64,000 bases of DNA. It comes from Spirochaetaceae bacterium. GTDB taxonomy: Bacteria; Spirochaetota; Spirochaetia; DSM-2461. Each line of letters begins with the position of its first letter. Position 1 is the first letter of the stretch. The position numbers and the translations under genes were made by a program. Shown one piece after another: positions 715 to 32,712 of the stretch. Location of the stretch: positions 160,656 to 224,655 of the forward strand of contig JAOPTT010000006.1 of NCBI GenBank assembly GCA_051531975.1, read 5' to 3'. The notes under the pieces are model-generated. The model was not told the origin of the DNA. It saw nothing but the letters and a program-made list of their open reading frames with translations, and ran no database searches.

Positions 715-1169
715 GTTAAAGATATAAAAACTTAAACTATAAATTGTTATTTACGGCATCACCCACGACAGGTTTGGGACATTTTTAGTTTAGTAATATA
801 TCCTTGTTCAACAAATGATGAAACGCCACTAATCATTTATCGATGTAATTTTATAATTGTGTAAATATATCTTAATTCTATAGAGAACATAATATCCTAT
901 ATTTTGATACTCCTATCGACTACAGCTAATGTAACATATATTATTAGGTGTACCAAAAGAGAGTCTGGGTGAATGTGGAAATATTACCTCATACAATATT
1001 AAGTATGCTTTAAGAACTCGTCATTCAAAAGTATCTAGTTCATTACACATAAATTAGTCATGAATATTTTAGTTTATATTGTATACATAGTATTAAATAA
1101 AGCAAAATTTTCAATTTGTACAAAATCCAACTTTCGTACTGCCAATATATTTAAAACGTACCTCGCGTT

Positions 1170-1274
1170 TCAATTCATTAATAAGATAATAACCGTTTGT
1201 GACATTACAATTAAAATAACGATTCCAGCCGAAATGAATAGAACCTTTCCATTGGCGACACTCATGTAGTCCAT
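1170..1274 (-). pseudogene. Truncated 5' fragment of a DUF5058-like membrane protein gene
   Basis: SD GAGG then MDYMSVANGKVLFISAGIVILIVMSQTVIILLMN*; resembles DUF5058 N-termini from memory; directly downstream of the kinase gene. Confidence 0.55.
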
Positions 1275-1290
1275 TTTTTATTCCTCTGTT

Positions 1291-4200
1291 TTATATACTA
1301 TTTAAAATCTCTTCTAATATCATTTTTGCTTCTTTCATTTTGTATTTACTAAGAAATTTTAACGCCTCTTCTATTTTTGAATGTGATAGTTTCTCTAATA
1401 TCTCTACTGCTGGTTTAGGTTTTCTTTTTTCAAGGAATCCTATAGCCGATTGTAAACTCTCTTTTAGCTCATCATCAGTTATATTTTTTACCTCTGCAGA
1501 CACTTCGACTTCAGTTGATATATTCTCATTTACACCATTTATCATCTGATTTAATACTGGCAGTATTGTTTTAAGTGCCTGTAACCAATCGCCGTCTTCT
1601 TTAAACTCTTTTTCTAACACTGCAGAGAGTTTCTGAAGCTCTTCTCCACCAAGGTTGGCACTTACTCCTTTTATTGTATGAGCAGCTCTTATAGCTTCTT
1701 CTCTGTTTTCTTTGTCCGTAATAGCTTTTATATCATTTTCAAACTCTTTATAGTCTGTTGCGAACTGTTTCAGAAGTTTTTTATATAACTTTCTATTACC
1801 ACCAACTCGATTTAAGCCCTGTTCTGTATCTATTTTAGGTAAAACAAGATCTTCTTCTTTGTCATTATTAGAACTCTCGATATTTTCTGTATAATAATCA
1901 GGAATGATTCTCTTTTTAGGTTTTATCCAGGCAGCTAGTGTATTCCATAATTCAGTGGTATTAATTGGTTTAGTAATGTAGTCATTCATCCCTACTTCTA
2001 TAACTTTATCCCTAACACCGGTCATTGCGTCGGCAGTCATGGCAATAATTGGCAGCCTATCTTGTGTAAAAGTTTTTCTAATAAGCTCTGTTGATTCATA
2101 ACCACCCATTACTGGCATTTGAAGATCCATAAGCACTAATTCATAGTCACCTTCTAAAGCCATATTCGCTCCGATCTGACCATTATCTGCGATATCGATA
2201 TAGAAGCCCTCTTGTTCAATTAATTCTTTTGCTACCTGTTGGTTTATATCATTATCTTCAACGAGCAGAATCTTTGCACCTCTAATATCATCAAAGTTTT
2301 CTGGTTTCTCATCTTTTTTATAATCATTGGTCAAAAGATTTGTAGACTTACCAAATACATTCATTATAGTATCAAGTAACATTGACGGACTAACTGGTTT
2401 AACAAGGAAGCCTTGTAGACCAATATCTTGTGCTTCGTGAATTATCTCTTCACGGCCAAAACTGGTCACCATTACTATCTGAGGAATTTCTACATTTTCT
2501 AACTCTGTTTTTATCTTTTTAGAAGCTTCGATACCATTCATTCCTGGCATCTGGTAATCCATTAAAACTAAGTCATAAACTCTGCTACCCTCTGCCTTAG
2601 ATTTAATTATCTCCCTAAGGGCTAAGTCCCCGGACTCAACACCGGTAACTTCAAAATTCATCTCTTTTAGATAGATTCCTAGAACCTCTCGTGATGTCTC
2701 ATTGTCATCTACAACAAGAACTTTTAATCCCTTTAACTCGACCGGGGTCGCTTTTACCTCTTTTTTCTCACCAATTTCTAGTAGTGCTGTGAAATAGAAG
2801 GTACTCCCTTCTCCATGTTCACTGTTTACCCCAATTTCTCCTCCCATCATCTCTGATAGTCGTTTACTAATGGTAAGTCCTAAGCCTGTTCCTCCATATT
2901 TTCTTGTTGTAGAGGAGTCGGCCTGGGAGAATGATGTAAATAGTTTATTTATCTGTTCCCCAGTTAATCCGATACCTGTATCCCTAACTTCAAATCGTAA
3001 CATAACACTGTTCTCAACCTGTTTTACTAGTTTCGTTGCAACTTCAATCTCACCACTTTCAGTGAACTTAACCGCATTGTTAGACAGGTTAAGAAGAATT
3101 TGCCCTAATCTTAATGGATCACCTATAAGATCGTTTGGTATTGCTGACTCTTGGTTGAAGATCAGCTCTACACCCTTAGAGCTAGCTTTATCCCCAATCA
3201 TATCTGCTAGTGAAGACATTACACTATTTAGAAAAAAAGGGATCTTCTCTATATCTAGTTTACCTGCTTCAATCTTAGAAAAATCTAAAATATCATTGAT
3301 AATACCTAATAAGTTTTTAGCTGCCCCATTTATCTTTTCAGCATAATCTTTCTGCTTTCTATTTAGTTCCGTTTTAAGTAATAAGTGGTCTAAACCTAAT
3401 ATCGCATTCATTGGTGTTCTTATCTCATGACTCATATTAGCTAAAAAGTCACTTTTGGCACGGGTAGCAGCTTCTGCTTCATCTTTTGCTAGCTCTAATC
3501 CCTGTTGTGCTAGGACTTGCTCACTTACATCAATAAATGTTCCCATTTCTTGTAGTGCTGTACCATCTTTATTCTTTTTTGTTACATCACAACGGAGACC
3601 TACAAAACGAACTTCGCCATTGCTTTTAATTACAGGGTATGTAGCACTATAACTATCAATTTCTCCTGTAATAGATGCTGAAAACTTAGTTAAAATATCA
3701 TCAACCATAACTTGATATTCAGGGGTTAGTTTTGCTACATCTTGCATTAAACCAGCCCATTTACTTATGTTATATGTACCTTCAGGATTTATCGGAAACT
3801 CTAACATCTCTGCTACATTGTCAGTGGCATGAAAAGTATCTTCTTCGTTAAAATTTATCCACCAAACACCCACTTCTGAAGCTTTAAGTGAACCGTAAAC
3901 AAGTTGATTTAGTAGGTTTAGACTGTTTTCTCGTTCTTTATCCTCCGTAATATTCTTGTTTATTCCCATCATAGTCTTTGGGCTTCCATCACTATTTCTT
4001 TCTACTATTTGACCATCACCTGACATCCATATATATTTCTCATCAGAAGGATGCCTATATCGAAAAATAGAGTGATATTTATCTACTTTTCCTTCTAAAT
4101 GATCTGTGAGTGCTTTAAATGCCTCTTCTTTATCTTCAGGGTGTAGCCGTTCCCCCCATGTTTTGGCAACATTCTCTTCTGTTGGATCAAAGCCAAATAA

Positions 4201-6852
4201 CTTTAGGTACAAAGGAGAGCCTATGGTTCTATCAGTTGCTACGTCCCACTCCCATGTTGCAAGTCCAGCACCCTCTGTTGTTATTTTAAATCGTTCATCA
4301 CTTCTTTCTAACTCTTTAGTTCTAGCTTTTACATTCTCTTCTAAAATTTTTCTCTGCTTATATAAGGTTTTTGTACGATTATTTAGAATTAATAATATTA
4401 ATCCTATAACTAATATTATATATAGTGATATTGCCCACCATCTAAACCAAGGAGGATTCTCTACATGGATTAATAAAGATACTTCCTGTTTAGGTAGACT
4501 CCATATCCCATCATTATTTGTACCTCGAACTCTAAGTGTATAAGTCCCCCCAGGTAGCCCTGTATATGAACCAAAACGACGAGTTCCAGCCTTATACCAC
4601 TCTCTATCATAACCTTCCAGTTTATATTCAAATCTGTTTTTTTTAGAGAATAGGTAGTTCAGAGCGGTATACTCAAACTCTATTGAACGATCTCGCCAAC
4701 CAAGGCTTATTTCATCTAAATGTTCAAATGATTTATCTGTCTTTATGATCTCTCCACTCTGTTTTATAGCAGTAATATAGATGTTAGGTGATAGGTCATT
4801 TGATGTTAATTCCTCTGGGATAAAACGGTTTAAGCCGTTATAACCACCAAACCATAAAGCACCATCATCGGATTTTCCTCTGGCGGTAGCAAAAAAGTCA
4901 TGGCTATGTAGACCATCCTCCTTTGTGTATACTTTAAGAACTTCTTCAGTCTCTATGTCTATAGAAACCAAACCAATATCAGTTCCTAACCAGATTCTTC
5001 TACTTCTATCTTCTAAAATATTGTGTACTATTGTTGCTTTAAAACCACGTTCTGATCCAATTCTGTCAAAGGTTCCTGTTTTTTTATCAAAAAGGTGTAG
5101 CCCACGGTCTGTTGATACCCAGAACTTACCAGTAGAGTCCTCTAGAACATCGTAAACAGTATTTGAACTGATTGATTTAGAGTCTGATGGATTGTGTTGG
5201 AAGTGAGTAAAAGTTGATGTAGTTTGGTTAAACTTCTCTAATCCTCCTCCCCAGGTTGCAATCCATAAAATGTTTTTATCATCCTTATCTCTAATCATTC
5301 TAATTGAAGTTACTGCTGCAAAGCTTTCTGGGTTATTAGGGTCGTGTTCAAAAACCTCTCTCTCCATAGTTTTTAGGTTCAGTCTATGTAGACTTTGTTC
5401 CCAACCTACAGCCCATATAACATCGGGGTTTTTATGATCTTCAATCATGGTGTAGTACCAGGTATCATCGGTATACTGTCTGATCACTTCTCTTTTATTA
5501 GAGTCCCAGGTAACTAACCCCCCTGCAGTAGATATAAAAAAATCACCCTTACTACTTTCGTAAAAACCAGATGAATATCCGTGGGGAAGTGTTTTAGGAT
5601 TAGCTGAATCACTTTTATGATGGGTAAAGCTACCATCAGCAGGGTTATATAGGTCTAAACCTTCACCAAAGTTACCAATCCATACATTCTTATTTGTGTC
5701 TTGGTAAATAGGCAACGGTGAATTACTTGCAATTGAATTTGGGTTACTGAGGCTATGGGTAAAGAGTTCAAAGTTATGCCCTCTTGGATCAAACTTATCG
5801 ACTTTTCCGTTGGTATGAACAATCCAAAGAGTTCCATCTCGGTCTTCAAAAGCACCAGTAATGGTGTCAGTGGTGAGTATTGGATCTTTACCTATTTCAT
5901 TTATATACTGCTTAAAAGTTTCACTTATAGGATCAAAGATTATAACTCCATAGGATGAAGCATCACTTAACAGTATAATATTTCCATTTTTTAACTGGTA
6001 GATGTCACCAATACGTATATTTGGTATAGATTTTTGGTCTAATGGGTCATGTTTTACAATAGAGAATAAACTACTTTGTTTGTCCATACGAATAAGGCCA
6101 TCGTTTAGAGATGCAAACCAAATATTCCCATTGGTATCTTCAAATACTGCTCTAATGCTATTTTGGGGAAAGCTGTTAGGATCTTCAGGATTATTAATAT
6201 AACGAGTTACCTCACCTGTTTCAGGATCTAATCTATTTACACCACTCTCTTTTGTACCTATCCATATAAAACCTTCACTGTCTTCAAACAGGCAGAAGAT
6301 ATTGTTCTCTGAGATTGAATTTGGGTCATTAGAGTTGTGAAAGTAGTTTGTAAACTCCCCATTAAAGTACATAGAGAGGCCAGTTTGTGTTCCAAACCAC
6401 ATACGACCTCTTTTATCTTGAATAATACATTTTGATGAGAAGTTGAAAACATTTCCTGCTAAGGTTGTAGTAGTGTTTTCAGGATCCCCATAAAACTTTT
6501 TAATACTGTTTGTTTTTTTGTTGTAAATATTTAATCCGTAGTTTGTTCCTACCCAGATTTTACCATCATCATCTTCAAACAGTTGTGTAACAAAATCGTT
6601 ACTAATACCATTTTCTCCGGCTTTTATCGGTTTTGTTTCTGCACCATCGAATCTAACCATTCCATTAAAGAATGAACTAAACCAGAGAAAGCCATCTTGG
6701 TCTTGTATTACAGAATAACAGATCTGACCTCCAATATCGAAGGTGTAATCAAATGATGGGTTGATATCTTCCTGTATTCCGAAGAGCGTTATAGATATGT
6801 TAAGTAAGAATATAACAAAGAATATATTTGAGATAAAAATACGATTTTTCAT
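1291..6852 (-). CDS. Hybrid sensor histidine kinase: beta-propeller (Reg_prop)/Y_Y_Y sensor, TM, PAS, HisKA, HATPase, 2x REC, HPt
   Basis: Repeated ..EDxxGxIWxGT..GL motifs, GTNNDGIWS, MSHEIRTPMN, GGTGLGL, two REC domains, AAHTIKG. Confidence 0.95.
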   Translation of the reverse strand: MKNRIFISNIFFVIFLLNISITLFGIQEDINPSFDYTFDIGGQICYSVIQDQDGFLWFSSFFNGMVRFDGAETKPIKAGENGISNDFVTQLFEDDDGKIWVGTNYGLNIYNKKTNSIKKFYGDPENTTTTLAGNVFNFSSKCIIQDKRGRMWFGTQTGLSMYFNGEFTNYFHNSNDPNSISENNIFCLFEDSEGFIWIGTKESGVNRLDPETGEVTRYINNPEDPNSFPQNSIRAVFEDTNGNIWFASLNDGLIRMDKQSSLFSIVKHDPLDQKSIPNIRIGDIYQLKNGNIILLSDASSYGVIIFDPISETFKQYINEIGKDPILTTDTITGAFEDRDGTLWIVHTNGKVDKFDPRGHNFELFTHSLSNPNSIASNSPLPIYQDTNKNVWIGNFGEGLDLYNPADGSFTHHKSDSANPKTLPHGYSSGFYESSKGDFFISTAGGLVTWDSNKREVIRQYTDDTWYYTMIEDHKNPDVIWAVGWEQSLHRLNLKTMEREVFEHDPNNPESFAAVTSIRMIRDKDDKNILWIATWGGGLEKFNQTTSTFTHFQHNPSDSKSISSNTVYDVLEDSTGKFWVSTDRGLHLFDKKTGTFDRIGSERGFKATIVHNILEDRSRRIWLGTDIGLVSIDIETEEVLKVYTKEDGLHSHDFFATARGKSDDGALWFGGYNGLNRFIPEELTSNDLSPNIYITAIKQSGEIIKTDKSFEHLDEISLGWRDRSIEFEYTALNYLFSKKNRFEYKLEGYDREWYKAGTRRFGSYTGLPGGTYTLRVRGTNNDGIWSLPKQEVSLLIHVENPPWFRWWAISLYIILVIGLILLILNNRTKTLYKQRKILEENVKARTKELERSDERFKITTEGAGLATWEWDVATDRTIGSPLYLKLFGFDPTEENVAKTWGERLHPEDKEEAFKALTDHLEGKVDKYHSIFRYRHPSDEKYIWMSGDGQIVERNSDGSPKTMMGINKNITEDKERENSLNLLNQLVYGSLKASEVGVWWINFNEEDTFHATDNVAEMLEFPINPEGTYNISKWAGLMQDVAKLTPEYQVMVDDILTKFSASITGEIDSYSATYPVIKSNGEVRFVGLRCDVTKKNKDGTALQEMGTFIDVSEQVLAQQGLELAKDEAEAATRAKSDFLANMSHEIRTPMNAILGLDHLLLKTELNRKQKDYAEKINGAAKNLLGIINDILDFSKIEAGKLDIEKIPFFLNSVMSSLADMIGDKASSKGVELIFNQESAIPNDLIGDPLRLGQILLNLSNNAVKFTESGEIEVATKLVKQVENSVMLRFEVRDTGIGLTGEQINKLFTSFSQADSSTTRKYGGTGLGLTISKRLSEMMGGEIGVNSEHGEGSTFYFTALLEIGEKKEVKATPVELKGLKVLVVDDNETSREVLGIYLKEMNFEVTGVESGDLALREIIKSKAEGSRVYDLVLMDYQMPGMNGIEASKKIKTELENVEIPQIVMVTSFGREEIIHEAQDIGLQGFLVKPVSPSMLLDTIMNVFGKSTNLLTNDYKKDEKPENFDDIRGAKILLVEDNDINQQVAKELIEQEGFYIDIADNGQIGANMALEGDYELVLMDLQMPVMGGYESTELIRKTFTQDRLPIIAMTADAMTGVRDKVIEVGMNDYITKPINTTELWNTLAAWIKPKKRIIPDYYTENIESSNNDKEEDLVLPKIDTEQGLNRVGGNRKLYKKLLKQFATDYKEFENDIKAITDKENREEAIRAAHTIKGVSANLGGEELQKLSAVLEKEFKEDGDWLQALKTILPVLNQMINGVNENISTEVEVSAEVKNITDDELKESLQSAIGFLEKRKPKPAVEILEKLSHSKIEEALKFLSKYKMKEAKMILEEILNSI

Positions 6853-7196
6853 AATTTAATTATATCTTTTAATCAGTTAAATACAAGTTGTTTTTAGGAG
6901 TCCATGTTATAACACGTGCAGCAATATCGAATTTATATTCTAATTACTAATTTGTAATATATTTACTTACATAAACTATTATATATGCTTTCGTATTGTG
7001 GTAATTACTCTACATTATAAATTTTATTATAGAAATCTTTCATCTTTAAAACTATACATAGTGATTTACTCCATACCGTTACTTCAGGTTTGGGACAATT
7101 TAATCTAGAAAAGTTTCACCATTAAAATGGTATAGTTGTAGTAATTTTGATTGTGATAATATTAAAATTTTAAATAAGGGACATAATATTCTTATT

Positions 7197-7860
7197 TTGG
7201 TACTTCTATCGTGTTTAGATTCAATAATTCCAGACCTCTTAAAAGAGGAATCTTTAGAAACCACAAGAATATGGTCTTTAGCTGGAAGACTAGAAAATGA
7301 ATCAGTATTTATTAGAAAACCTCCAATAAGAAAACCTCACCATGGAGCATCATTAGAAGGTTTAGTAGGTGGAGGGAAACATCATCAGCCAGGTGAAATA
7401 TCATTAGCTCATAACGGTTACCTGTTTCTAGATGAAATAGCAGAGTTTAAAACTTCCATAATTCAAAGTCTAAGGCAACCAATGGAGGAGTGAAGAGTAT
7501 CACTAAATAGAGCAAAAGTATCTACCTGGTAACCTGCAAACTTTAGGTTAATAGCAACTGCAAACCCATGTCCATTTGCAAACCTAGGTAAAGAAGATGG
7601 TATCTGTATGTGCTTAGAAAAGAGATTAGATGGTACTGGAGACGAATTGTGGAGTAATTATGGATAGGATAGATATTATGGTTCCTGTTACTCCTGTTTT
7701 AACTAAAGTTATGCTAGAGGATTAAGGTGCTAATTCTAAGGATATATAGATGAAGGTTGATATTGCTGTTAATAGACAAAGAACACGATATAAAGACTCT
7801 TCAATAACTTGTAATGCCAGAATACCATCTGGAGAAATTGATAAGTTCTGTTATCTATCT
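7197..7860 (+). pseudogene. comM: comM/yifB (Mg-chelatase-like AAA+) 3'-half remnant, copy A
   Basis: [52 protein letters not shown]; in-frame stops (TGA 7491) and frameshifts; no N-terminal half. Confidence 0.9.
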
Positions 7861-8294
7861 CAATAGTATGTGACATATTATGCGTAGTTTAAAAATAATA
7901 TAACACATAGATTAGCAACAATCCCCACGAGGTTAAATTTCGGTCGATTTTTGTATAATTATTGACAACCATGTAAAATAGGATTCATAATCACACTATA
8001 CATGTTAATATTTGTCCTGAATTTGAACACTACTCAAAAATAGATTAAAGCACATTTCTGTAGTAACAATTCTTGGCCCGTGACAATGTGACAAATGAAT
8101 GATTACCACAATGTTTTTAGAGAAACAGTGCAATAATCTTGCATTAGATTTTAAGTGGCTGGAGTTTTTTTTTAGAAAATATTGCAGTTCTGATATAGAA
8201 TATTGATAGAGTATTTAAGAAAAAGAATTTATTGGCTTTAAAGCCGATAGCTATACAAAGCTATAAATTATCCCCCAGAGAAAATGGAGACGAT

Positions 8295-10529
8295 ATGAAC
8301 AGAATAAAAAGCATTTTATTGATATCAGTAATATTATTGATAACACTATTAAGTAGTTGTGCCACTGTCGAGGTTCGTGCAGCAAAGAAAGGGGATATAG
8401 AATCCCTTAAGAAATTTATTGATAAAGGCGGCGACGTTAATGAGCCAGAAAAGGGTGGAACAACCCTACTCATGTATGCTTCAGAAGCCGGTCAGACTCA
8501 AGTCATCAGTTTTTTACTGGATAAAGGGGCAATTATCAGTCTCAAAGATAACAACGGACGAAGCGCATTTATTTATGCAGTCATAGCCCGAAAACAGGGC
8601 GCTGCCCAGCTGCTTCTACAGAGAGGTGCTGATGTAAACATAGTTCTCTCTTCAGGTGATTCTGCCCTAACTCTTACGGCTCAATCTCAGAATCAGAATA
8701 TGATAAAAATACTTCTAGAAAACGGAGCTGACCTGAATCATAAGAATTATGGTGGATGGTCTGCACTGACTCTCAGTCTCAGCAAGGATGCTCAAGGGCC
8801 TACAGGGATAAATAAGGCCAGCACTATTCTGATAGACCTGAATGCCGATCTGGACCCTGATTCTGGGAATGTTCGTATAGTGGCCTTTTCAGCAGCCTCA
8901 TCGGGAAATAAAGACGTCCTTAAATATCTGCTGGATCTAGGATTAGATCTTGAAAGTAAGTCCGATAAAGGGGCGACCCTTCTACTAACTGCTGTTTTAG
9001 CACAGAAAATCGAAATGGTACGTTATCTCCTGAATCTTGGAGCCGACTGGTCTGTAAAGGATTCATCAGGATGGTCAATCCTTATGAAATCCCTGTATGA
9101 CAGTGCTTCTAAAGGTAAAGGGCTGGATACAATTGCAAAACTTCTTATGGATAAAGGTGCCCGTCCGGAAGGCTCTTCACCACATGGTGTAACCACAGGA
9201 TACAAGGCTGGAGAGAAAGGGGCAGTAGAGATACTGAGCCTTCTCATTGATAACGGACTCTCTCCTAATATCAAGGATTCATCGGGATGGTCAATTCTTA
9301 TGAAATCCCTATATGACAGTGCTTCCAATGGTAATGGGCCAGATACAATTGCAAAACTTCTTATGGATAAAGGCGCCCATCCGGAAGGCTCCTCTCCACA
9401 GGGTGTAACTACAGGATACAAGGCTGGAGAGAAAGGGGCAGTAGAGATACTGAACCTTCTCATTAATAACGGACTCTCTCCTTATATCAAGGATGCAAAA
9501 GGCAATAGCCTTCTAATTATTGGTATTGCACATACAAAGATTGTCAAGCTGCTGATTTCCTTGGGTGTTCCTGTAGATGGTAGAAACGAGCAGAGATATA
9601 CTCCTTTGATTATGGCTGCAGCCGGTGGCTATAGAGATTCACTTTCTCTCCTCTTGCGGGCAGGTGCAGAACCGGACCTCAGGGATAACAATCGCCAGAC
9701 AGCTCTGTTATATGCAGCCGGAACCTCAGATGTTGAAATGGTTCGTAAACTGCTGATTGCGGGAGCTTCTCCCCATACCACCGATAAAACAGGTAATACA
9801 GCTCTACATAAAGCAGCAGCTAAAGGTGTTCCAGAAACAGTTCGCCTGTTACTGACATCTGGAACCTATGTGGATTCTGCAAATGCTCAGGGAGATACAC
9901 CCTATGTTCTAACTTATAAAAACAAGAAACAAGGTTCTAGCATAAGAGAAATACTGGCAATAGGGGGTGCAAAGGTTCCTGTAGAAAAGCCGACAATCGT
10001 AGAAAAACCGACAATCGTAGAAAAACCGACAATCGTAGAAAAACCGATAATCGTAGAAAAACCGATAATCGTAGAAAAACCGATAATCGTAGAAAAACCG
10101 ATAATCGTAGAAGTGCCGACAATCGTAGAAGTACCGACACCTAAACCACAGCCTGCTTCACCAGTAGAGCCTGAAGCTGGCACACAACCTGACCTAACAG
10201 TCCGATTCGGTTGGCCTTCTATCAACCCTTCAGACATAAGAGGCTGGAATAACAGTGATAAGATGATTGGAACAGCTACACTACAGATCGGCTACAGTTC
10301 AGAATCATCATGGTTTTACGAGCACACAATGGATATTCCAAGAAAAGGTGTAAATGCCGACAGCTATGAAGCAAATCTTGATTTTGGAAATAGAACCTTA
10401 GACCCCTGTAAAGCAGTTTTAACTATTCCTACCAAGAAAGGAAATGCCCTAGTATGTGAAATCACAGTTCAACCTGACCTGGATGGTAGAATGATTCTGT
10501 ATTTTGAAGATTTCATATATAAAAAATAG
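8295..10529 (+). CDS. Ankyrin-repeat lipoprotein with Pro-rich linker and unknown C-terminal domain
   Basis: SD GGAG before ATG 8295, lipobox LLSSC, many ankyrin motifs (GNTALHKAA, TPLIMAAA); visibly higher GC than flanks. Confidence 0.9.
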   Translation: MNRIKSILLISVILLITLLSSCATVEVRAAKKGDIESLKKFIDKGGDVNEPEKGGTTLLMYASEAGQTQVISFLLDKGAIISLKDNNGRSAFIYAVIARKQGAAQLLLQRGADVNIVLSSGDSALTLTAQSQNQNMIKILLENGADLNHKNYGGWSALTLSLSKDAQGPTGINKASTILIDLNADLDPDSGNVRIVAFSAASSGNKDVLKYLLDLGLDLESKSDKGATLLLTAVLAQKIEMVRYLLNLGADWSVKDSSGWSILMKSLYDSASKGKGLDTIAKLLMDKGARPEGSSPHGVTTGYKAGEKGAVEILSLLIDNGLSPNIKDSSGWSILMKSLYDSASNGNGPDTIAKLLMDKGAHPEGSSPQGVTTGYKAGEKGAVEILNLLINNGLSPYIKDAKGNSLLIIGIAHTKIVKLLISLGVPVDGRNEQRYTPLIMAAAGGYRDSLSLLLRAGAEPDLRDNNRQTALLYAAGTSDVEMVRKLLIAGASPHTTDKTGNTALHKAAAKGVPETVRLLLTSGTYVDSANAQGDTPYVLTYKNKKQGSSIREILAIGGAKVPVEKPTIVEKPTIVEKPTIVEKPIIVEKPIIVEKPIIVEKPIIVEVPTIVEVPTPKPQPASPVEPEAGTQPDLTVRFGWPSINPSDIRGWNNSDKMIGTATLQIGYSSESSWFYEHTMDIPRKGVNADSYEANLDFGNRTLDPCKAVLTIPTKKGNALVCEITVQPDLDGRMILYFEDFIYKK
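9057..9488 (+). repeat. Intragenic tandem duplication, 2 x 216 bp (72 aa)
   Basis: AAGGATTCATC(A/G)GGATGGTCAAT starts at 9057 and 9273; near-identical units. Confidence 0.95.
9981..10139 (+). repeat. 18-bp coding tandem repeat, ~9 units (VE[K/V]P[T/I]I)
   Basis: GTAGAAAAACCGA(C/T)AATC units read directly. Confidence 0.97.
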
Positions 10530-10760
10530 AAGCAGTATCCTGACCGTTCCTCCCAGAATAGTCGGGAAACGGTTTTCTCATTCAATGCCCCAAACTACCT
10601 ATTTATCCGGTTATACGTCGGTAGCAGGGGGTAATACCAACTCTTATACAATTTAAATCTATTTGACTCCCGAGACATTTTGCTTTCCTAGAGGAACTCA
10701 GGCTTCAGTATTGATAACTTTGTTCAGAATCTTACAGATATGGCACGAGTTAATCTCGTG

Positions 10761-10855
10761 GAATATCGTCACTAGTAGGCAGACTAGAAAATGAATAAGT
10801 ATTTATTAGAAAACCACCCCAAACACACACCATGGATCTTCATTAGGAGGTTTAG
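10761..10855 (+). pseudogene. comM: comM remnant, copy B1 ([11 protein letters not shown]...HHGASLEGL region)
   Basis: AGACTAGAAAATGAAT.AGTATTTATTAGAAAACC and CACCATGGA.C.TCATTAG.AGGTTTAG align to 7268-7365. Confidence 0.85.
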
Positions 10856-10867
10856 AATAATAGATAT

Positions 10868-11725
10868 TTAATACTCATCAAGAAAGCTATGCTTCTCCTT
10901 ATTTTTTGTCCAGCCAATTATTGCATCGGTAAATATATTTTTACTGGACATAAATATACTTTTATCAACATCCTGAAATGTTTCTCCAAGTTTTTTAATT
11001 AGATCTTTAACCTCACGTCTTTTACTAGATGTTTTTTTAGCGGCTACAATACAACCACAATTCATGGCATTTAGTCCATTTTCAGATGTGAACTCTTTTA
11101 TATCGTCCTCTCTAACATAATATAGTGGTCTAATTAACTCCATATTCTCAAAATTAGTTGATTTTAATTTAGGCATCATTGTTTGATATTTACCAGAGCA
11201 TAGAACATTCATCATTATTGTCTCTATTACATCGTCATAGTGGTGACCTAATGCGACTTTGTTACATCCTAACTCCTCTGCCATAGCGTAGAGTGCTCCC
11301 CGCCTCATTCTTGCACATAGGTAACATGGATAGTCATTTGCTATTTTATCTACTACCTTAAATACATCTCTATCGAATATTTTTAAATCGATATCTAAGT
11401 GTTTGCAGTTACTCTTTAGTTGATTCTTATTAGCTTCATTAAAACCAGGATCCATAGAGATAAAGTGAAGGTCAAACTTAAAAGGACCGTGTTTTTGAAG
11501 TTCTTGAAATAGTTTTGCCATTAATAGACTGTCTTTCCCACCGGAAATTGCAACAGCTATTGAATCTCCTTCGTTTACAAGTCCAAACTCTTTAATACCC
11601 TTTATAAAAGGGGTCCATAGAGTTTTTCTCATAGTAGTAATTAGACATTTCTCTATATCTTTAACTGATTGTAGAGCATTTTTAGGTATTATTAACTCAC
11701 AACCACTTCCTGAAACTCCTGACAT
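10868..11725 (-). CDS. ttcA: tRNA 2-thiocytidine biosynthesis protein, TtcA family
   Basis: PP-loop SGGKDS, CYLCARMRRG, ALGHHYDD, LIRPL, C-x-C; SD GGAGG favours the ATG at 11725. Confidence 0.88.
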   Translation of the reverse strand: MSGVSGSGCELIIPKNALQSVKDIEKCLITTMRKTLWTPFIKGIKEFGLVNEGDSIAVAISGGKDSLLMAKLFQELQKHGPFKFDLHFISMDPGFNEANKNQLKSNCKHLDIDLKIFDRDVFKVVDKIANDYPCYLCARMRRGALYAMAEELGCNKVALGHHYDDVIETIMMNVLCSGKYQTMMPKLKSTNFENMELIRPLYYVREDDIKEFTSENGLNAMNCGCIVAAKKTSSKRREVKDLIKKLGETFQDVDKSIFMSSKNIFTDAIIGWTKNKEKHSFLDEY

Positions 11726-11920
11726 TATCATCCTCCGTTTGTAGGATATTATTTAGGAAATTGGTAATGAAATCAAGATAATATACACTAATATTGATAG
11801 TATAATTATTTCTATAATTTGTAATCCTTAATTTAAGGGATTGAAGATCCTGAGAATTTAAAGTTGAACACATATAAAATATATATGAAGGGAATGGTAA
11901 AGCTCTGAAAAAGTTTTAGA

Positions 11921-12607
11921 TTTAGTTGGAGGAGGTAAACATCATCTATCAGGAGATATCTCTCTAGTTCATAATGGTTATATGTTCATAGATGAAATAG
12001 CTGAGTTTAAAACTTCTATAATACAAAGTTTAAGAAAGCCAATGGAGGAGAGAGTGGTATCTTTGAATAGGGCAAATGTTTCAGCTTGGTATTCTGTAAA
12101 TTTTAGACTAATAACAACAACTAACCCATGCTCATGTGTAAACTTAGGTAAAGAAGATGGTATTTGTATGTGCTCTTAAAAAGAGATTAAACGATATTGG
12201 AAACGAATAGGTTTCGCAATTATAGATTGGATTGAAATAAGGGTTTCTGTGTTTCCTATTCAACTAAAGTAATGCTTGGGATAATGGTGCTAATTCAAGG
12301 GATATTAAGATGAAGTTTTATCTTGCTGTTAATAGACAAAGAAAACGATATAAAGACTTATTAATCTCCTGTAATGCTAAGAATATCATCTATTGAAATT
12401 GATAAGTTTTGCTACCTATCTGAAGAATTAAAACAGATGTTTATTAAAAGTATTAACTCCTTGTCTTTATCATCAAGAGGTTGTCATTCTGAACTTAAAT
12501 GTAGAACTATTGCTGATTTAGAAAGGTCAGAAAACATAACATAGATACATATAATAGATGCATTTACTTATAGAAGGTATAAAGATGAGGATTATTATTT
12601 TAGTTGA
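11921..12607 (+). pseudogene. comM: comM remnant, copy B2 (LVGGG to the natural stop)
   Basis: [39 protein letters not shown]; multiple stops and frameshifts. Confidence 0.9.
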
Positions 12608-12668
12608 ATATGTCCAATCCAAGTTTATGTTTTTATTTCAATTTTAAATCACCACTTCCATTTTATAA

Positions 12669-12697
12669 TTGACAATAAATAAGCTGTCTTATATAAT
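12669..12697 (+). promoter_or_regulatory. Consensus sigma70 promoter of the leaderless caspase-family gene
   Basis: TTGACA-17 nt-TATAAT, ATG 6 nt later, no SD. Confidence 0.85.
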
Positions 12698-12703
12698 TAT
12701 TTT

Positions 12704-13912
12704 ATGAAAAAGTTATATTTCTTTCTAATATTTATCTTAATTAGTTTTAATTTAATATATTCTGAAAATAGAGTAGCTCTAGTAATTGGCAACGGAAATT
12801 ATTCCAGTAGTCCTCTTAAAAATCCTGTTAATGATGCAAAAGATATGGCATCAACTCTTAAGACTCTAAATTTTGAAGTTATACTTTTAACAGACTCTAC
12901 TAAAAGAGAAATTTTATCAGGTTTTAAAACCTTTAGTAATAAATTAAATTCCGAGAGTGTAGGGCTTTTCTATTATGCAGGACATGGAACACAAATAGAT
13001 AATAAGAATTATTTAATTCCTATAGGTGCTAACATAGAAACAGCTTCTGATGTTGAATTCGAAGGTGTGGTCCTAGACCGTCTTATTAGAACCATGGAAG
13101 ATTCTAAGGTAAATAAGAGTCTAATATTTTTAGATGCGTGTAGAGATAATCCTTATGCTTCTTCAAGTAGATCAGGAACTAGAGGTTTAACAGTCGTTTC
13201 TACAACTTTAAGTGCAGATTCTGCCGGATCATTAATATCTTTTGCAACCAGTCCTGGATCGGTTGCTGCAGATGGTGATGGCGATAATGGTATATTTACA
13301 ACCGCATTGTTAAAATATTTGACAGAACCTGGGTTAGAAATAAACCAAATAATGGTAAAAGTTCGTGCTAATGTCATGGAAAATACAAATGGACAACAAC
13401 AACCATGGACAAATGTTTCGTTAACAGAGGAGTTTTACTTTTCTAAAAAAATTATCGAAACTGTTGAAACTGTTGAAGTTATTAACACTGATAGTCCTTT
13501 AGTGGTTGAACCCGTAATTACTCCTAACTCCAAAATAAACAAATGGTATATTGATACAGGTTTCGTTTTTTTATACCACGATTCAACAGAATCAGGTCAA
13601 ATTGCTTTTCCTGGTATTAGTATTGGTGCTTCATATACAATTTCCAATTTTATATCTTTAGGTATAGCAGGAGCTTTAGTTAATAAAATGTTTATAAATA
13701 CTGGTACAGAAATGGAAGATGAAGGGGAAGAAGGCTTATACCCTGGAGGTTATGTTACTGTATCTATTGGTAATGTTAAAAATGGAGCTGCAATTAATGT
13801 AATTCTGGGACTACCAATTGGTTTCGGTATTTCATACAAGAACCTTTTTGTTAACTTCTTAACACTTGTAGATTATGGTGGTTCAGGTTTACAAATTGGT
13901 TATTCATTTTAA
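12704..13912 (+). CDS. Secreted caspase-family (peptidase C14) protein with C-terminal beta-barrel-like domain
   Basis: Signal peptide; RVALVIGN, YYAGHG and LDAC catalytic dyad; amphipathic C-terminal strands ending GYSF. Confidence 0.88.
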   Translation: MKKLYFFLIFILISFNLIYSENRVALVIGNGNYSSSPLKNPVNDAKDMASTLKTLNFEVILLTDSTKREILSGFKTFSNKLNSESVGLFYYAGHGTQIDNKNYLIPIGANIETASDVEFEGVVLDRLIRTMEDSKVNKSLIFLDACRDNPYASSSRSGTRGLTVVSTTLSADSAGSLISFATSPGSVAADGDGDNGIFTTALLKYLTEPGLEINQIMVKVRANVMENTNGQQQPWTNVSLTEEFYFSKKIIETVETVEVINTDSPLVVEPVITPNSKINKWYIDTGFVFLYHDSTESGQIAFPGISIGASYTISNFISLGIAGALVNKMFINTGTEMEDEGEEGLYPGGYVTVSIGNVKNGAAINVILGLPIGFGISYKNLFVNFLTLVDYGGSGLQIGYSF

Positions 13913-13941
13913 ACTATACATATTAATTTCCGAAATATATA

Positions 13942-13969
13942 TAGATTAATAGAAACTGCAAATCCTTGC
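13942..13969 (+). pseudogene. comM: Tiny comM remnant, copy C (RLIETANPC)
   Basis: 23/28 nt match to copy A TAGGTTAATAGCAACTGCAAACCCATGT. Confidence 0.55.
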
Positions 13970-14341
13970 ACATACTATGGTTTTTTAAGCTAATGTAGAA
14001 AATCTCCCAATTAGATTACTTCTCTCTAAAGATCTCGTGTGTTTCAAGTAGACACACAAGGGCAAATAAAGGTTATATAAGTTCGTCAATTTTAGATTGT
14101 ATTAGAAAAGTAGAAAGTTTATCCATAATTCGATCACATTTATACCCATAGTGGCTTTGTTTATTCTCCCAGGAATATGATTGCTTCACATAAGTCTTTT
14201 CGTTTTGTCATTGTAATAATATATTCATAAAAATTAATTTAATATCAAATGATAGCCCCAATTGGTAAGCTCTGTTCTTGAATAAAAAGATTGTAATTTT
14301 ATCAGAAAATTGATTTAGAATTATCATTTTAGATTTTAATA

Positions 14342-14484
14342 ATATAAAAGTTGAATAAAAACAACAAGGATTATTCATAAATCCTACTAAAATGGTATAT
14401 AATAAGAATTTTAGGTTTTATATATATAAAGTTGCATAAAAATAACAAAATTCATTCATATATCCTACCAAAATGGTATATAAT
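14342..14484 (+). repeat. Tandem duplicated ~62-bp promoter-like unit (period ~81 bp)
   Basis: Two copies of AAAGTTG.ATAAAAA.AACAA...TTCATA.ATCCTAC.AAAATGGTATATAAT. Confidence 0.85.
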
Positions 14485-14525
14485 TAAATTATATATTTTA
14501 TATTATTAATTGTAGAGGATATATC

Positions 14526-17504
14526 ATGAAAATTAAAAGAACAGGAATTATTAAAAGTTATTTATTTATATCAATCTTATCTATTATATTAGGCGCTTGT
14601 TCTAACCCTTTGATTACTGACCTGATGGAAACACTGGAAAATGATGTCGTTGAAGCTCAAGCCGGTGACCCTCCTGTTTTGGAATCTTTGAATGTTGCAG
14701 ATGGCGCTGTAGATATCTCCACCTCAATTGTTCTCTCAGTCGAATTCAAAGTTGAAATGGATCCTCTTACAATAATAAGTGAAAATATAACCCTTTCTAA
14801 AGCCCAGAATGATGTCGTTATAAGTTCTGCTATTGTATATGACGATGCTACAAAAACATTTTCTCTAACTCCTTCGTCAACTCTTGATAAAGAAGCTGAA
14901 TATAAGCTTTCTATCACTACCAGTGTTAAGAGTCTACAGGGTGCTGCTCTTGAGAGTGAAATTGTCAGAAATTTTACAACCAGATATTTTCATGATACAG
15001 AAGTTGGAATCCAACTGTATTATTCCAGCAACAATCTTGTCTTGAATTCTGGAGCACCAATTTATATTGAATTCTGGTCATCTCCTCTTCAATATGTTCC
15101 CAGTAATACACCAACAACGATCCTTGTTCTTTCATCCCCTGTAATAACATCTGCCGGTAAAATTGCTATTCCTATTTCATCCTTTCCAGCGGGTTTTTCT
15201 TCAGGTATGTTTAAGTTTTTTCATGATATAAATGGTAGCTATGGATCTGATTCAGATTCAGATGATAGTGCAGATTCTATTTATTGGTATAACTCTTCTG
15301 GTAGTGGTAATATGTCTCCTGATGATAGTGAAGATTCCGGTTATGAATTCATGGTAAACCAGGATGTTAATGATCGTTTTATGTTTGTAGATTCTGGGGG
15401 GACTTCTATTCCTGTTGATGGAAGTGGTTTGCCAACTTCTACTCCTGCTTTCTACAGTTTGAAAGATAATTTTCTTTTATCAGCAGGTAATGGATATACT
15501 ATAAACTATACTGATGGAAGTGCATTTGCAGCTGATCCTTTTGAAACAGCTGAATCTTCAAATAACTATAGAAACATTGATCATGGTACTTACGAGATCG
15601 CTAGAAATCTTCATTCTCTGGATGATGTTGATTATTTTACATTTACACCAGCATCTAGTGATGTTTATGAAATTCGTGTTAATGAATCAGAATTTGAATT
15701 TCAGGTGGGACTGTATTCTAGCGAGTCTAATATGTTAACTGATTCTAGTCCTCTTGCTACTCCGAACAATGGTTCAGCTGCCCGTGTTGTAAACGGCACT
15801 GGGACATTTCTTACAGGAGGATCTACATATTATATACGAGTTGAAAGCCCTTCCAGTGGAATGGGACCCTATGAGATTGGATATTTTTACAAACCTGCCA
15901 CACCAGATGCTGCTGAAGATGCAGATGATGTTATAGGCACCGCTCCTGCATTAACCTTAGGAAGGTCAAATGCGCTTACCAGAACCCTAGAAGCAGGTAG
16001 CGACACAGATTATTATTCTTTTGACCTGGTTAATGGATGGGATTACATTGTTGAAGTTGTAGAAGATCCAACTTATTTCAATTTTTCAGCAGAATCCAGA
16101 AATATTGATTTTAATCTCAGGTTTTACAAAGATGGTACACCACAGGGATCCTTTGCTCCATTTCCTAATACGATGATTATCCCAGGTTCCGATGACTGGA
16201 ATTACCCCGATACAAGCAACTACCATATTGAAGTTCAGAACAACTCAACACCGATTGGTGATGAACAGGATCTACCAAGTGGTCAGTACAAGATACTTAT
16301 AACATATTCTTTCGACGGGAGTGATCAGGCTAATAATCCAAATACAGACCCAACAAATGAATATGATAATTGGAACGAACACGGTCCGGCCTCTTACCAG
16401 GCATCGGTTTATGTCTCTCCAGGAACTAAGGGAAGGGAACGGACTATCTACTCTACTACTGAAGTAAATCCTGAGGATGATGTAGACTGGATAAGGTTTT
16501 ATGTTGCAGATATATATGATTATTACAATTTTAAGGCTGAACCTATAGCTGGAGCCGACGGAGTTGTTGTTGACTTTGAAATCTATGGTTCAACTACTGT
16601 ATCAAGTGAGATTGTACCGGATACAGGTTCAGGCTCAGTAGCTTCATCTCAGCAATGGGTATCAGACACATCAATAAGAACAGCCAGTTTTTATCCACTT
16701 ACTGCCCGGACTTATGTTGATGAATCAAATCCAAGCTCTGAAGAACACTACTGGTGGGCGAAGGTTACAAGGGACTCTTCACATTCGGGTAATCCTATAA
16801 CCGGAGCTTATAACTTTAAATATCTGACAGGTCCCGACTGGATGGATATAGATTATCCGGACTCAGAGGTTGATGTATATTCAGGAACTTATGCTGAAAA
16901 TAATATTGTTTATACCGGCGGAATGGATGAAACGCCATGGATAGGAAAACCATTTTCAGATGCTGGCTATGATTTTGAGACAAGAAATGAACTTATCTGG
17001 GGAAATATGGGTGGAAATCCAGATATTGAGATAGAGTACAACTCATTGTTTAGAAGAGATTATAATTATTCTTCTTCAGGTGAATGGGACGGTGTGACTG
17101 ATAAAGGTACAGATTTTGATTTCAAGTGGTTCCAGATGCCTACAAGTCCACCAACTATTATACCTTTTAATATTGTAATCTACTCAAGGGCTGAATATAC
17201 AATACCAGTTAAACTTAGTGTCTGGCGGATTACTCAGGCTCAATGGACTACATTATCATCAGACAGATATATCACTGAAGCTGAACTAAACGCAACAGAT
17301 ACGCCAACACTTTATTATACTAGTTATGAAACAGGTGAAGAAACCGATAAACTTGAAATTATTGATTATTCAGATGTAGCGGAAACAGATTATATATTCA
17401 TGAAATTTGAAATTGATGATTCTAGAACAACATATGTAGACGGTGACGGAGTGACACAGAATTATTCGAATTCTGGAGCATATCAAATCTGGATATTCAG
17501 ATAG
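14526..17504 (+). CDS. Large acidic surface lipoprotein with Ig-like (Big_5/SbsA-type) domain and PPC-like repeats
   Basis: Lipobox LGAC; Ig-like LTPSSTLDKEAEYKLSI...FTT; repeated DxDY/W-x-F motifs. Confidence 0.8.
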   Translation: MKIKRTGIIKSYLFISILSIILGACSNPLITDLMETLENDVVEAQAGDPPVLESLNVADGAVDISTSIVLSVEFKVEMDPLTIISENITLSKAQNDVVISSAIVYDDATKTFSLTPSSTLDKEAEYKLSITTSVKSLQGAALESEIVRNFTTRYFHDTEVGIQLYYSSNNLVLNSGAPIYIEFWSSPLQYVPSNTPTTILVLSSPVITSAGKIAIPISSFPAGFSSGMFKFFHDINGSYGSDSDSDDSADSIYWYNSSGSGNMSPDDSEDSGYEFMVNQDVNDRFMFVDSGGTSIPVDGSGLPTSTPAFYSLKDNFLLSAGNGYTINYTDGSAFAADPFETAESSNNYRNIDHGTYEIARNLHSLDDVDYFTFTPASSDVYEIRVNESEFEFQVGLYSSESNMLTDSSPLATPNNGSAARVVNGTGTFLTGGSTYYIRVESPSSGMGPYEIGYFYKPATPDAAEDADDVIGTAPALTLGRSNALTRTLEAGSDTDYYSFDLVNGWDYIVEVVEDPTYFNFSAESRNIDFNLRFYKDGTPQGSFAPFPNTMIIPGSDDWNYPDTSNYHIEVQNNSTPIGDEQDLPSGQYKILITYSFDGSDQANNPNTDPTNEYDNWNEHGPASYQASVYVSPGTKGRERTIYSTTEVNPEDDVDWIRFYVADIYDYYNFKAEPIAGADGVVVDFEIYGSTTVSSEIVPDTGSGSVASSQQWVSDTSIRTASFYPLTARTYVDESNPSSEEHYWWAKVTRDSSHSGNPITGAYNFKYLTGPDWMDIDYPDSEVDVYSGTYAENNIVYTGGMDETPWIGKPFSDAGYDFETRNELIWGNMGGNPDIEIEYNSLFRRDYNYSSSGEWDGVTDKGTDFDFKWFQMPTSPPTIIPFNIVIYSRAEYTIPVKLSVWRITQAQWTTLSSDRYITEAELNATDTPTLYYTSYETGEETDKLEIIDYSDVAETDYIFMKFEIDDSRTTYVDGDGVTQNYSNSGAYQIWIFR

Positions 17505-17595
17505 CATGATAATAGTTGCGAGCGTAGATTACCGTACAATTATCAACCTGTCCTGTTTTGAAGAATATACTAATTACGATTAAAGGAAGAACAAT

Positions 17596-19680
17596 ATGAG
17601 AGAAGTCAGATATTATTTAATTATTTGTTTATTTTTAAGTCTAGTCACTTTGTTATCAGCCCAGAATTCAAATTTCTCTATTGATCTCAATCCTAAAATA
17701 AGTATACCAATGCGGACAAGCGCCGACCTCTATTCAATTGGTGGAGGTGCAGTTTTATCCGGTACATATGATCCATCATTACCTTATTATATTAAGGGAG
17801 GAATAGGATATGAATTAATCCCCACTCTAGCTACAGAAAATATGAATTTAATAACAGGTTCTATTGGTGGTGGATTACGACTTGATATTGGTGATTTTAT
17901 TACTTACCGCCTAGGTGCTTATGGTGGTGCTTATCTTGTCTCATACGACGATATAACAGCGTGGAACCCTTATGGTGGCGCAGAGACCGGATTACAGTTT
18001 AATATTACAAAGTCAATTCAAGTTTCGTTAATGGGATCATATGATTATTATGTTGGAGAAATTCTTACAACTCCATCTATTTCAGAAGAGTCTTTTTTTG
18101 AAGGAGTATCTGCATTTATAGGAATTTCCTTTAATCCCGGAGCTATCTCAGGCTCTGGTATAAGACGTCCTCGAATGGAAATTTTCCCACCTTCGTTTAA
18201 TTCAATCTTTCCAGTATTTTATCAATACTACAACGATAATACTTTAGGTTCTGTAATAATTCGTAATGATGAAAAAAATACTATTACAGATGTTAAGGTA
18301 AGTTTTTTTGTTAATCAGTTTATGGAAGCCCCAAAACTAAGTGCAGTAATAGATGAATTAAAGAGTGGGGAAGAAGTAGAAATACCTTTATATGGTTTAT
18401 TTAAAGATTCTGTTCTGGGAGTTACTGAAGTTACTACAGTAACTGCACAGATTTTTGTTGAATATAATGAAGATGAAGATATCTTAAATACCTCTTTTTC
18501 TGAAAGTATAAAAATATTAAACCGAAATAATATGACCTGGGATGATGATAGAAAAGCTGCTGCATTTGTTACAGCCAATGATCCTACAGTTCTTAGATTT
18601 GCCCGAAATATTGCTTCATCAATAAGAAGTGATAGAAAAACTGCTGTAAATGAAAATCTGAGAAATGCAATGGCTATTTTTCAGGCTTTAAATATTTTTG
18701 GTATGAGATATGTCATCGACCCTGATTCGTCCTATATTGAATTATCTGAAAATGAAAAATTTCTTGATTTTCTTCAATTTCCCCAACAAACATTGGATTA
18801 TCGAACAGGAGACTGTGATGATTTATCTATTCTATATTCTGCACTACTTGAATCAGTTGGAATTCGAACTGCATTTATTACTATTCCAGGTCATATTTAT
18901 ATGGCTTTTGCTCTAGATATGGATGAAAAAAAAGCAATTAAAACATTTTCACAACCAAATAATTTAATTATTGTAGATGATGAGGCCTGGGTACCTGTTG
19001 AGATAACAATGATGAAAGATGATTTTCTGTCTGCCTGGAAAACAGGAGCAAAACAGTGGAGGGAAAATAATCCCGTAGGGCTCGCAGGGATGTATAAGAT
19101 AAGAGATGCATGGAAAACTTATTCTCCTACAGGATTTGCATCAACAGCTTTAGATGTGAATGTTCCTCAAACAACAGAAGTTTTACCTAATTACTTAAAA
19201 ATTTTGAATACTTTTATTAAACAGGAAATTGGTCCTCGTGTAATAGATCTGAAAAAAAGAATTATTGCTAGTAACAATAATCCCCGGGTAATAAACAGTC
19301 TAGGAATATTATATGCTAGATATGGTTTATATGATGAAGCTAGTGAACAATTTAATCTTGCTGTTAAAACAGATGAATATCTTCCGTCCCTTATTAATCT
19401 TGGAAATATTGCTTTTTTAAATAAAGAAACTGAAATAGCACGTGGTTATTTGGAGCGTGCCAGAGTTGTTAGGGATGATCATCCAAAAGTTCTTGTGAAA
19501 CTTGCTAGAATACATTTTGATCTTGAAGAATATAAAAAGGCAACTAAAAGGTATAGAGAAGCAGAGGTCATTGATCCAGAAATTGTCCAGGCTTATAGTT
19601 ATATTGTTAACGAAAATAAAGATTCAGCTAGAGCCTCTGCAGCACAGGAACGTAATATAGTTTCATGGGATGAGGAATAA
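17596..19680 (+). CDS. Secreted protein: beta-barrel-like N-terminus, transglutaminase-like core, TPR tail
   Basis: Signal peptide, Gly/aromatic alternating strands, GDCDD...PGHI...WVPVE, TPR-like C-terminus. Confidence 0.75.
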   Translation: MREVRYYLIICLFLSLVTLLSAQNSNFSIDLNPKISIPMRTSADLYSIGGGAVLSGTYDPSLPYYIKGGIGYELIPTLATENMNLITGSIGGGLRLDIGDFITYRLGAYGGAYLVSYDDITAWNPYGGAETGLQFNITKSIQVSLMGSYDYYVGEILTTPSISEESFFEGVSAFIGISFNPGAISGSGIRRPRMEIFPPSFNSIFPVFYQYYNDNTLGSVIIRNDEKNTITDVKVSFFVNQFMEAPKLSAVIDELKSGEEVEIPLYGLFKDSVLGVTEVTTVTAQIFVEYNEDEDILNTSFSESIKILNRNNMTWDDDRKAAAFVTANDPTVLRFARNIASSIRSDRKTAVNENLRNAMAIFQALNIFGMRYVIDPDSSYIELSENEKFLDFLQFPQQTLDYRTGDCDDLSILYSALLESVGIRTAFITIPGHIYMAFALDMDEKKAIKTFSQPNNLIIVDDEAWVPVEITMMKDDFLSAWKTGAKQWRENNPVGLAGMYKIRDAWKTYSPTGFASTALDVNVPQTTEVLPNYLKILNTFIKQEIGPRVIDLKKRIIASNNNPRVINSLGILYARYGLYDEASEQFNLAVKTDEYLPSLINLGNIAFLNKETEIARGYLERARVVRDDHPKVLVKLARIHFDLEEYKKATKRYREAEVIDPEIVQAYSYIVNENKDSARASAAQERNIVSWDEE

Positions 19681-19708
19681 CGTTTATGAAATATTTCTAT
19701 GTTAAAAT

Positions 19709-32702: not shown

Positions 32703-32712
32703 TAGTTTAATT

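Follow-up and report, generated by a model that had tools for sequence, protein, structure and literature searches.

A ttcA-family gene inside a decayed comM copy of a spirochaete genome, between two copies of the pentanucleotide TTTAG

How does a complete gene come to lie within the ruins of another, and does the short repeat at its two ends mark the crossover of a mobile system or the scar of a single event? These questions are raised by a locus in the genome of a Spirochaetaceae bacterium (assembly GCA_051531975.1; source genome G000). The window, that is, the whole stretch of DNA analysed, comprises 64,000 nucleotides (nt), G000:C6:160656-224655, where C6 is the contig; positions without a prefix are those of the window, and nt positions of comM are those of the intact gene. 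Within the window, a displaced 3' remnant of comM is interrupted by a segment carrying a single ttcA-family gene. We find a genome scar of an ordinary kind, though unusually clean. The insertion looks like a one-off event and not like the working site of a mobile system. It would be a small, clean record of one useful gene entering a spirochaete genome, in DNA where insertions cost nothing. If more such units were found they would point to an unrecognised route of single-gene transfer; as a lone case, the insertion is a curiosity.

Anatomy of the insertion

The insert of 1,065 base pairs (bp) splits the comM 3' remnant B, also called R3, exactly into a left part, B1, and a right part, B2 (Table 1). 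The original prediction had placed a ttcA-bearing segment of this length at the glycine-leucine-valine codons of a comM remnant, and blastn matches and alignments confirm its coordinates. B1 ends in ...GGAGGTTTAG, giving the junction GGAGG-TTTAG, and B2 begins with TTTAG followed by TTGGAGGAGG. In the intact comM, in R1 and in copy A (R2) there is one TTTAG (nt 825-829; 7361-7365 in copy A), uninterrupted and read as GAAGG-TTTAG-TAGG over codons G275-L276-V277. Both the 5-bp direct repeat that flanks the insert and the continuity of copy A at this place, which had been proposed together, are borne out by the alignment. The probability that two random 5-mers of the window are identical is 0.002. 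A third TTTAG lies one base before the right repeat, the right end of the insert reading ...GTTTTAGA / ...AAGTTTTAGA.

Both parts of the remnant are decayed. B1 has a TAA in the comM frame (10796-10798) and a 4-nt deletion, while the comM match of B2 is spread over three frames (tblastn) with frameshifts and stops, and its PF01078 match contains one TAA. Had B1 and B2 been different alleles, the original prediction would have fallen. They rank the other copies in the same order of similarity, intact above R2 above R1 (84, 82 and 79% for B1; 80-82, 77-79 and 77-78% for B2), the ranking of B1 being a weak one-allele test as it spans only 89-93 aligned nt. B1 and B2 look like halves of one allele.

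An artefact or a chance arrangement might be suspected here, in which B1 and B2 are unrelated truncated remnants ending at the same coordinate, or the contig is chimeric. The genome was apparently assembled from a metagenome, and four comM-like repeats lie within 22 kilobases (kb). On the other side stands a single Logan unitig of 2,261 nt that crosses both junctions and covers 10300-12445 with 0 differences, at a depth of 37.7 that is even with its neighbours; to the extent that contigs, which drop rare variants, can show it, an assembly artefact is thereby excluded. Among the contigs of that run, the sole public one with this stretch, no alternative joint at B1/B2 is listed; the run is labelled marine metagenome and may be the source sample. 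The comM copies differ by 10-20% and therefore by too much to confuse the assembler. Given also the low chance of a 5-nt overlap and the identical ranking of B1 and B2, we consider an artefact extremely improbable.

The contents of the insert are simple. The ttcA gene is the sole open reading frame (ORF) with a domain in a Pfam scan; 12 nt separate its stop codon from the left junction. As the original prediction had it, there is neither a transposase in the insert nor a pair of TG...CA ends, and the domain scan found no tnpA or tnpB. Terminal inverted repeats are absent, the best pair being 14 nt of AT-rich sequence situated 5 and 35 nt inside the insert ends. The ends fold no better than shuffled sequences on either strand (z 0.0-1.5), no dyad symmetry surrounds TTTAG, and no second copy of the insert or of its ends occurs elsewhere in the genome. 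Rfam yields 0 matches at E<=0.1 in 6800-13000, 0 tRNA genes lie in 1-20000, and a promoter and terminator scan gave only weak promoter-like matches, no more than in shuffled sequence.

Several known types of element were held against this anatomy. Of the marks of a DDE transposon or insertion sequence (IS), the insert has a flanking repeat of the target-duplication kind and lacks inverted repeats, a transposase and trans-mobilised copies. Elements of the IS200/IS605 type have subterminal hairpins and insert 3' of a fixed 4-5-nt target; the insert does not fit such an element, or one derived from it, as there are no end hairpins and no tnpA or tnpB. An integron cassette carries a folded attC behind its ORF and GTTRRRY cores. 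Here only 12 nt follow the ttcA stop, with a fold of z 0.8-1.5, and GTTTAGA does not fit GTTRRRY; with neither an attC fold nor a core, the insert does not fit a gene cassette.

Table 1. Features of the insertion and of the comM array (window positions unless prefixed C6)
Feature	Position	Strand	Description and evidence
B1, left part of third comM 3' remnant	10761..10855	+	comM nt 731-829; blastn 81.8% over 99 nt; alignments
TTTAG, left copy	10851..10855	.	last 5 nt of B1; sequence reading, alignment
Insert	10856..11920	.	single copy in genome; no terminal inverted repeats or end hairpins
ttcA-family PP-loop gene	10868..11731	-	intact, 287 amino acids (aa); PF01171; NF007972; full-length homolog match
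ttcA upstream region	11732..11920	-	189 nt; GGAGG before ATG; third TTTAG at 11915-11919
TTTAG, right copy	11921..11925	.	first 5 nt of B2; sequence reading, alignment
B2, right part of third comM 3' remnant	11921..12605	+	to comM stop, nt 825-1513; blastn 82.5%, nt 822-1513
Intact comM	C6:150725-152239		504 aa; TIGR00368, 540 bits; 8.4 kb before window
R1	C6:156990-157843		comM nt 658-1514; 87% identity to intact
R2 (copy A)	7182..7867	+	nt ~625-1333; blastn 7209-7867, nt 673-1333, 90.5%; left arm 7182-7212
R3 (B1+B2)	10761-10855 and 11921-12605	+	nt 731-1513; 82% identity to intact
Ankyrin segment	7868..10760	+	765-aa ankyrin-repeat gene; G+C 0.39-0.45; replaces R2 end and R3 start

Identity and origin of the inserted gene

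The inserted gene is a complete member of the TtcA family and a predicted tRNA-thiolation gene. Its product scores 67.8 bits against PF01171 (PP-loop; cut-off 27), bears the SGGKDS motif, and matches a Spirochaeta cellobiosiphila protein named TtcA family from end to end without gaps at 76% identity; identity to proteins named TtcA by their sources is 60-76%. The [4Fe-4S] cluster of TtcA is held by the cysteines of a CxxC motif and a third Cys. The translation contains CYLC, a CxxC motif, and NCGC, and its nearest solved relatives are [4Fe-4S] tRNA thiolases (E 5e-11). The gene shares with the TtcA family, in its clostridial type, the PP-loop domain and this identity to named members, and differs in that its best NCBIfam model, NF007972 (TtcA), is matched at 202.3 bits, below the cut-off of 272, and in that the genome also holds a canonical paralog. 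Since the score lies under the equivalog threshold, the gene is a family member whose exact function is not assured.

The existence of a second ttcA and the phylogeny of the inserted copy had been singled out in the original prediction as informative, and both proved to be so. The canonical paralog lies at C14:92937-93626 and is 35% identical to the inserted copy; most relatives have this type, and among them are all three same-genus genomes. The inserted type is rare in the class and laterally spread: at E<=1e-90 it occurs in 10 of 401 sampled genomes, G000 included, and in none of the three same-genus genomes, whose completeness is 96, 81 and 71%. Named public relatives of this type are mostly Clostridia (for example Acidaminobacter, Fusibacter, Vallitalea and Clostridium).

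We placed the gene in a tree of 42 rows, composed of the query, 10 spirochaete loci and 30 of 120 listed hits chosen by name and rank, with the paralog serving as a long outgroup. The G000 copy pairs with an 85%-identical protein (support 100/98); this pair joins S. cellobiosiphila, the genome G047, which belongs to another family (96/80), and then G038 of a third family (99/87). The copy stands apart from four genomes of its own family, those of genus g3, and the basal branching is without resolution. The surroundings of the gene are ordinary, and free of comM, at all five related loci inspected as well as in G047; among the g3 genomes it adjoins the same run of same-sized ORFs, and nucleotide homology to the related loci ends at the ORF limits. 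Given the rarity of the type in the class, the position in the tree and the surroundings of the relatives, the ttcA gene is laterally acquired. The contrary possibility, that ttcA is ancestrally syntenic at B and the comM pieces came later, was weighed and does not hold: the type was not found in any of the three same-genus genomes and the nearest relatives belong to other spirochaete families.

The comM array and the place of TTTAG in it

Is TTTAG the crossover site of the system that built the comM array? A family search of the whole genome finds one intact comM and three 3' remnants, all in the same direction, within C6:150.7-173.3 kb. The copies of the array are 77-95% alike, as against 61-76% identity to comM of the same-genus genomes G001 and G003. 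The left ends of R1 and R2 coincide, and upstream of nt 677 the two share a common arm (29 of 31 positions identical) that matches the intact gene at only 39/55 and 25/34 positions (71-74%) and in which the Walker A codons (nt 640-663) are ruined. Over the 150 nt past nt 677, the intact gene, R1 and R2 are 89-95% alike; the left end of R3 is lost. The boundary of R1 and R2 thus falls by the Walker A codons, around comM nt ~660-677. A crossover near nt 660-677 would produce such a switch of identity if every island brought an arm resembling comM together with a substitute for the 3' part.

The remnants match what tandem accretion of islands at comM as the target gene would leave. An intact target followed by displaced direct 3' copies is present, as is a common left arm, and a recombinase is absent: C6:150-280 kb yielded neither a tyrosine nor a serine recombinase, nor an rve domain, and the PF00589 match closest to it on C6 is at 592885. 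In the rest of the genome the R1/R2 arm has no match beyond R1, R2 and comM, and genome_contigs gave 0 matches. No second array of this kind came to light, for G000 has 5 matches to the C-terminal half of comM and no other listed genome among the 401 sampled from the class has more than 2. The array suggests islands that dock at the Walker A codons and restore comM with their own ~860-nt 3' part. This stack of islands is the more instructive feature of the locus, as gene-restoring islands would here dock at Walker A, not at Walker B.

The original prediction had also proposed that TTTAG may mark the crossover site of the comM system. This part of it did not stand. Both R1 and R2 are continuous across nt 825-829, their boundary lies ~150-200 nt upstream, and there is no jump of identity at nt 825; the repeat is therefore not the crossover of the array. 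Likewise, the joined ends of the insert are unlike comM and the R1/R2 arms, with local scores of 18-20 where shuffled sequences average 20-22.5 and 259-457 of 500 shuffles do as well. We also considered the right end of the insert as the arm of a fourth island; a MAFFT alignment was suggestive, but local scores were no better than those of shuffles, and the candidate was rejected.

A related idea is that a ttcA circle was recombined into B by a recombinase of the islands, now absent, at the GTTTAG of nt 824-829 as a look-alike of a primary site at nt 677-682, TTTAG being then a recombination core and not a duplication. GTTTAG does occur at both places, the copy at nt 677-682 coinciding exactly with the end of the R1/R2 arms, and the exact repeat, the lack of inverted ends and the cassette-like, single-gene nature of the unit are what such an event would leave. 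The same shuffle test, however, finds no significant likeness between the joined insert ends and comM or the R1/R2 arms. Dyad symmetry around TTTAG and a recombinase in the region are both wanting, and only a circle carrying TTTAGA in tandem would account for the third TTTAG. We consider this decidedly improbable. A more far-reaching version would join the two features of the locus: an undescribed type of island docks by Walker A at a GTTTAG core and restores comM with its own 860-nt 3' part, and the same absent recombinase also slots single-gene circles, such as that of ttcA, into look-alike GTTTAG sites, with TTTAG as the recombination core. This we regard as very improbable.

Synteny of G000 with G001:C1 and G003:C22 holds through comM and breaks at the comM 3' end, and the genes that adjoin comM in G001 and G003 lie 126 kb further on in G000, at C6:278149-282984, leaving a gap of C6:152240-278148. 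One giant island of 126 kb was rejected as the sole reading of this gap. A ribonucleotide reductase gene of the window has an 89% ortholog in G001 that lies 330 kb from its comM; rearranged core DNA therefore accounts for part of the gap.

Island 1 (C6:152327-155582) contains an IS fragment and short repeats. Two of its ORFs on the minus strand (C6:153112-153979) resemble pieces of transposases, as judged by eye from their translations, and a repeat of 125-230 nt occurs three times at 75-78% identity, first ~90 nt past the comM stop. Island 2, between R1 and R2, holds lipoprotein genes and a 1,853-aa hybrid kinase.

A possible course of events and its alternatives

The analysis shows how the locus is built, that the gene came laterally, that the hallmarks of mobile elements are missing and where the R1/R2 boundary lies; a staggered-cut mechanism and an order of events we infer. 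In this reconstruction, a short piece of foreign DNA was inserted once, long ago, into an already dead comM copy by way of a 5-nt staggered cut, through an enzyme acting in trans that is now gone. Successive islands would each have brought a replacement comM 3' part, leaving three displaced and decaying 3' copies behind the intact gene. A foreign piece of 1,065 bp with ttcA and its own upstream region would then have entered copy B, the oldest and most decayed of them, a single time. The target would have been cut with a stagger of 5 nt, the piece joined and the gaps filled, which would yield the TTTAG target duplication, and the enzyme, having acted in trans, would no longer be recognisable. 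Usefulness or recent arrival would have kept the ttcA gene whole as the decay of the surrounding pseudogene went on.

The exact interruption of B with a 5-bp duplication, at a place where the other three copies are continuous, argues for this course. So do the unitig across both junctions, the completeness and the lateral origin of the gene, the position of the R1/R2 boundary away from TTTAG and the lack of a recombinase in C6:150-280 kb. A number of observations weigh against it. Neither the enzyme nor any element ends were found, so the staggered cut is something that we purely infer. Makers of 5-bp duplications, such as the Tn7, Tn3 and Mu types, have inverted-repeat ends, and the insert has none. 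The insert is trimmed oddly close to one gene, ending 12 nt after the stop; the third TTTAG, one base from the right repeat, is not explained by a simple target duplication; and the GTTTAG at which the R1/R2 arms end could hint at a shared core. A donor context and an empty site were likewise not found. In the DNA of 40 relatives, a search for the empty site met only distant comM (67-71%) or ttcA (67-70%), never side by side, and an exact 26-nt search of metagenome contigs returned 0 matches; these searches brought no close relative to light. On balance, we put the chance of a single old insertion by staggered cut at about even, which makes it the likeliest of the readings.

The complete lack of element hallmarks speaks for a capture that needs no dedicated enzyme, in which foreign or ectopic DNA is taken up illegitimately at a break or by template switching, by way of TTTAG microhomology at both joints. 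Short AT-rich microhomologies are indeed present at both joints, the extra TTTAGA included, and the ankyrin gene provides a second hallmark-free single-gene segment that has replaced DNA in the same array. Microhomology joining alone, however, gives no exact target duplication, and the genome contains no donor copy. An illegitimate capture seems to us unlikely. The ankyrin segment itself has borders without repeats and is the second hallmark-free single-gene arrival in the array; its gene has an internal 225-nt repeat of 92% identity, and the surrounding G+C is ~0.30.

A question remains, how does the insertion compare with elements known to target comM? Tn7-type insertion gives 5-bp duplications, and insertions of Tn6022/AbaR are flanked by one. 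According to the available portions of PMC10293859 and PMC11014353, Tn6022/AbaR (Tn7-like, with TnsF) and Tsy (with a tyrosine recombinase and a TnsF-like protein) both seek out a stretch of 10 bp within the Walker B codons of comM, and insertions fall, in the former account (PMC10293859), no further than ~40-50 bp from that attachment region. In the present comM, Walker B (LFLDE) occupies nt 886-900, which is 57 nt downstream from where the insert entered, and it is unlikely that the position of the insertion is identical to the Tn6022/Tsy site. The locus resembles Tn6022/AbaR in that comM is the target and the Mg-chelatase/AAA part is disrupted, as far as these two sources describe it (PMC11014353, PMC10293859). 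It differs in having no tnsABC, tniQ or tnsF and no TGT...ACA ends, in comprising 1 kb and one gene, and in that a dead gene copy was hit, upstream of the Walker B codons recognised by TnsF. With Tsy it shares an insertion in comM without inverted repeats; Tsy has a circular intermediate and cargo beside a 3' comM part, in the available text of PMC10293859. In contrast to Tsy, which by the same partial account attaches at Walker B and not at the GLVGGG codons, no genes for a tyrosine recombinase, a helix-turn-helix protein or TnsF lie in or near the insert.

These likenesses leave room for a larger element aimed at comM (Tn6022/AbaR-like, Tsy-like or other) that struck a working comM at the GLVGGG codons and later decayed, deletions leaving the ttcA cargo and subsequent islands restoring comM upstream. 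The demonstrated use of comM as a target by several types of element (PMC10293859, PMC11014353, in the portions available) is in keeping with it, as are the 5-bp duplications mentioned above, the Tsy loci that lack inverted repeats and carry cargo beside a 3' comM part (PMC10293859, with the same limit), and the status of B as the oldest copy, at 82% identity to the intact gene. The ends of the insert, however, bear no TGT or ACA; as the ttcA stop comes only 12 nt after the left junction, hardly anything of an element end survives. Nor was any Tns, TnsF or recombinase remnant found, and the distance to Walker B, to which such elements home, is the same difficulty as before. We hold a decayed element to be rather unlikely.

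Two further systems offer parallels to the array rather than to the insert. In Wolbachia, the prophage WO type sr1WO uses a magnesium chelatase gene as its attachment site and is flanked by pieces of that gene, in the part of PMC9203015 that was available. It differs in being a prophage with its own large serine recombinase that splits the gene, while no such recombinase lies in C6:150-280 kb and the gene here is restored. The ssrA islands of Dehalococcoides (PMC3146451, again from a partial text) and CIME-type arrays show an intact gene followed by displaced 3' copies that bound cargo without a recombinase. They differ, to the extent that the source describes them, in that the copies at the present locus are ~860 nt of a protein gene and not the short end of a tRNA or tmRNA gene, and the ttcA insertion is a separate event in one copy.

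The window also holds other genes. Right behind B2 (12704-20278) follow genes for a caspase-domain protein of 402 aa, a 992-aa Big_5 protein, a 694-aa TPR protein and a CheD homolog. In G003 the caspase protein has relatives at 64-70% identity that form part of longer ORFs (683-735 aa); G001 and G002 yielded none. Two hybrid sensor kinases of very large size, with propeller domains of the Reg_prop/Y_Y_Y kind, are encoded at 1291-6852 and 22016-27677, the 1,853-aa one being that of island 2. At 30122-35731, two radical-SAM genes and a pair of ABC-2 transporter genes adjoin a divergent regulator of the AraC type and could form a peptide-modification cluster.

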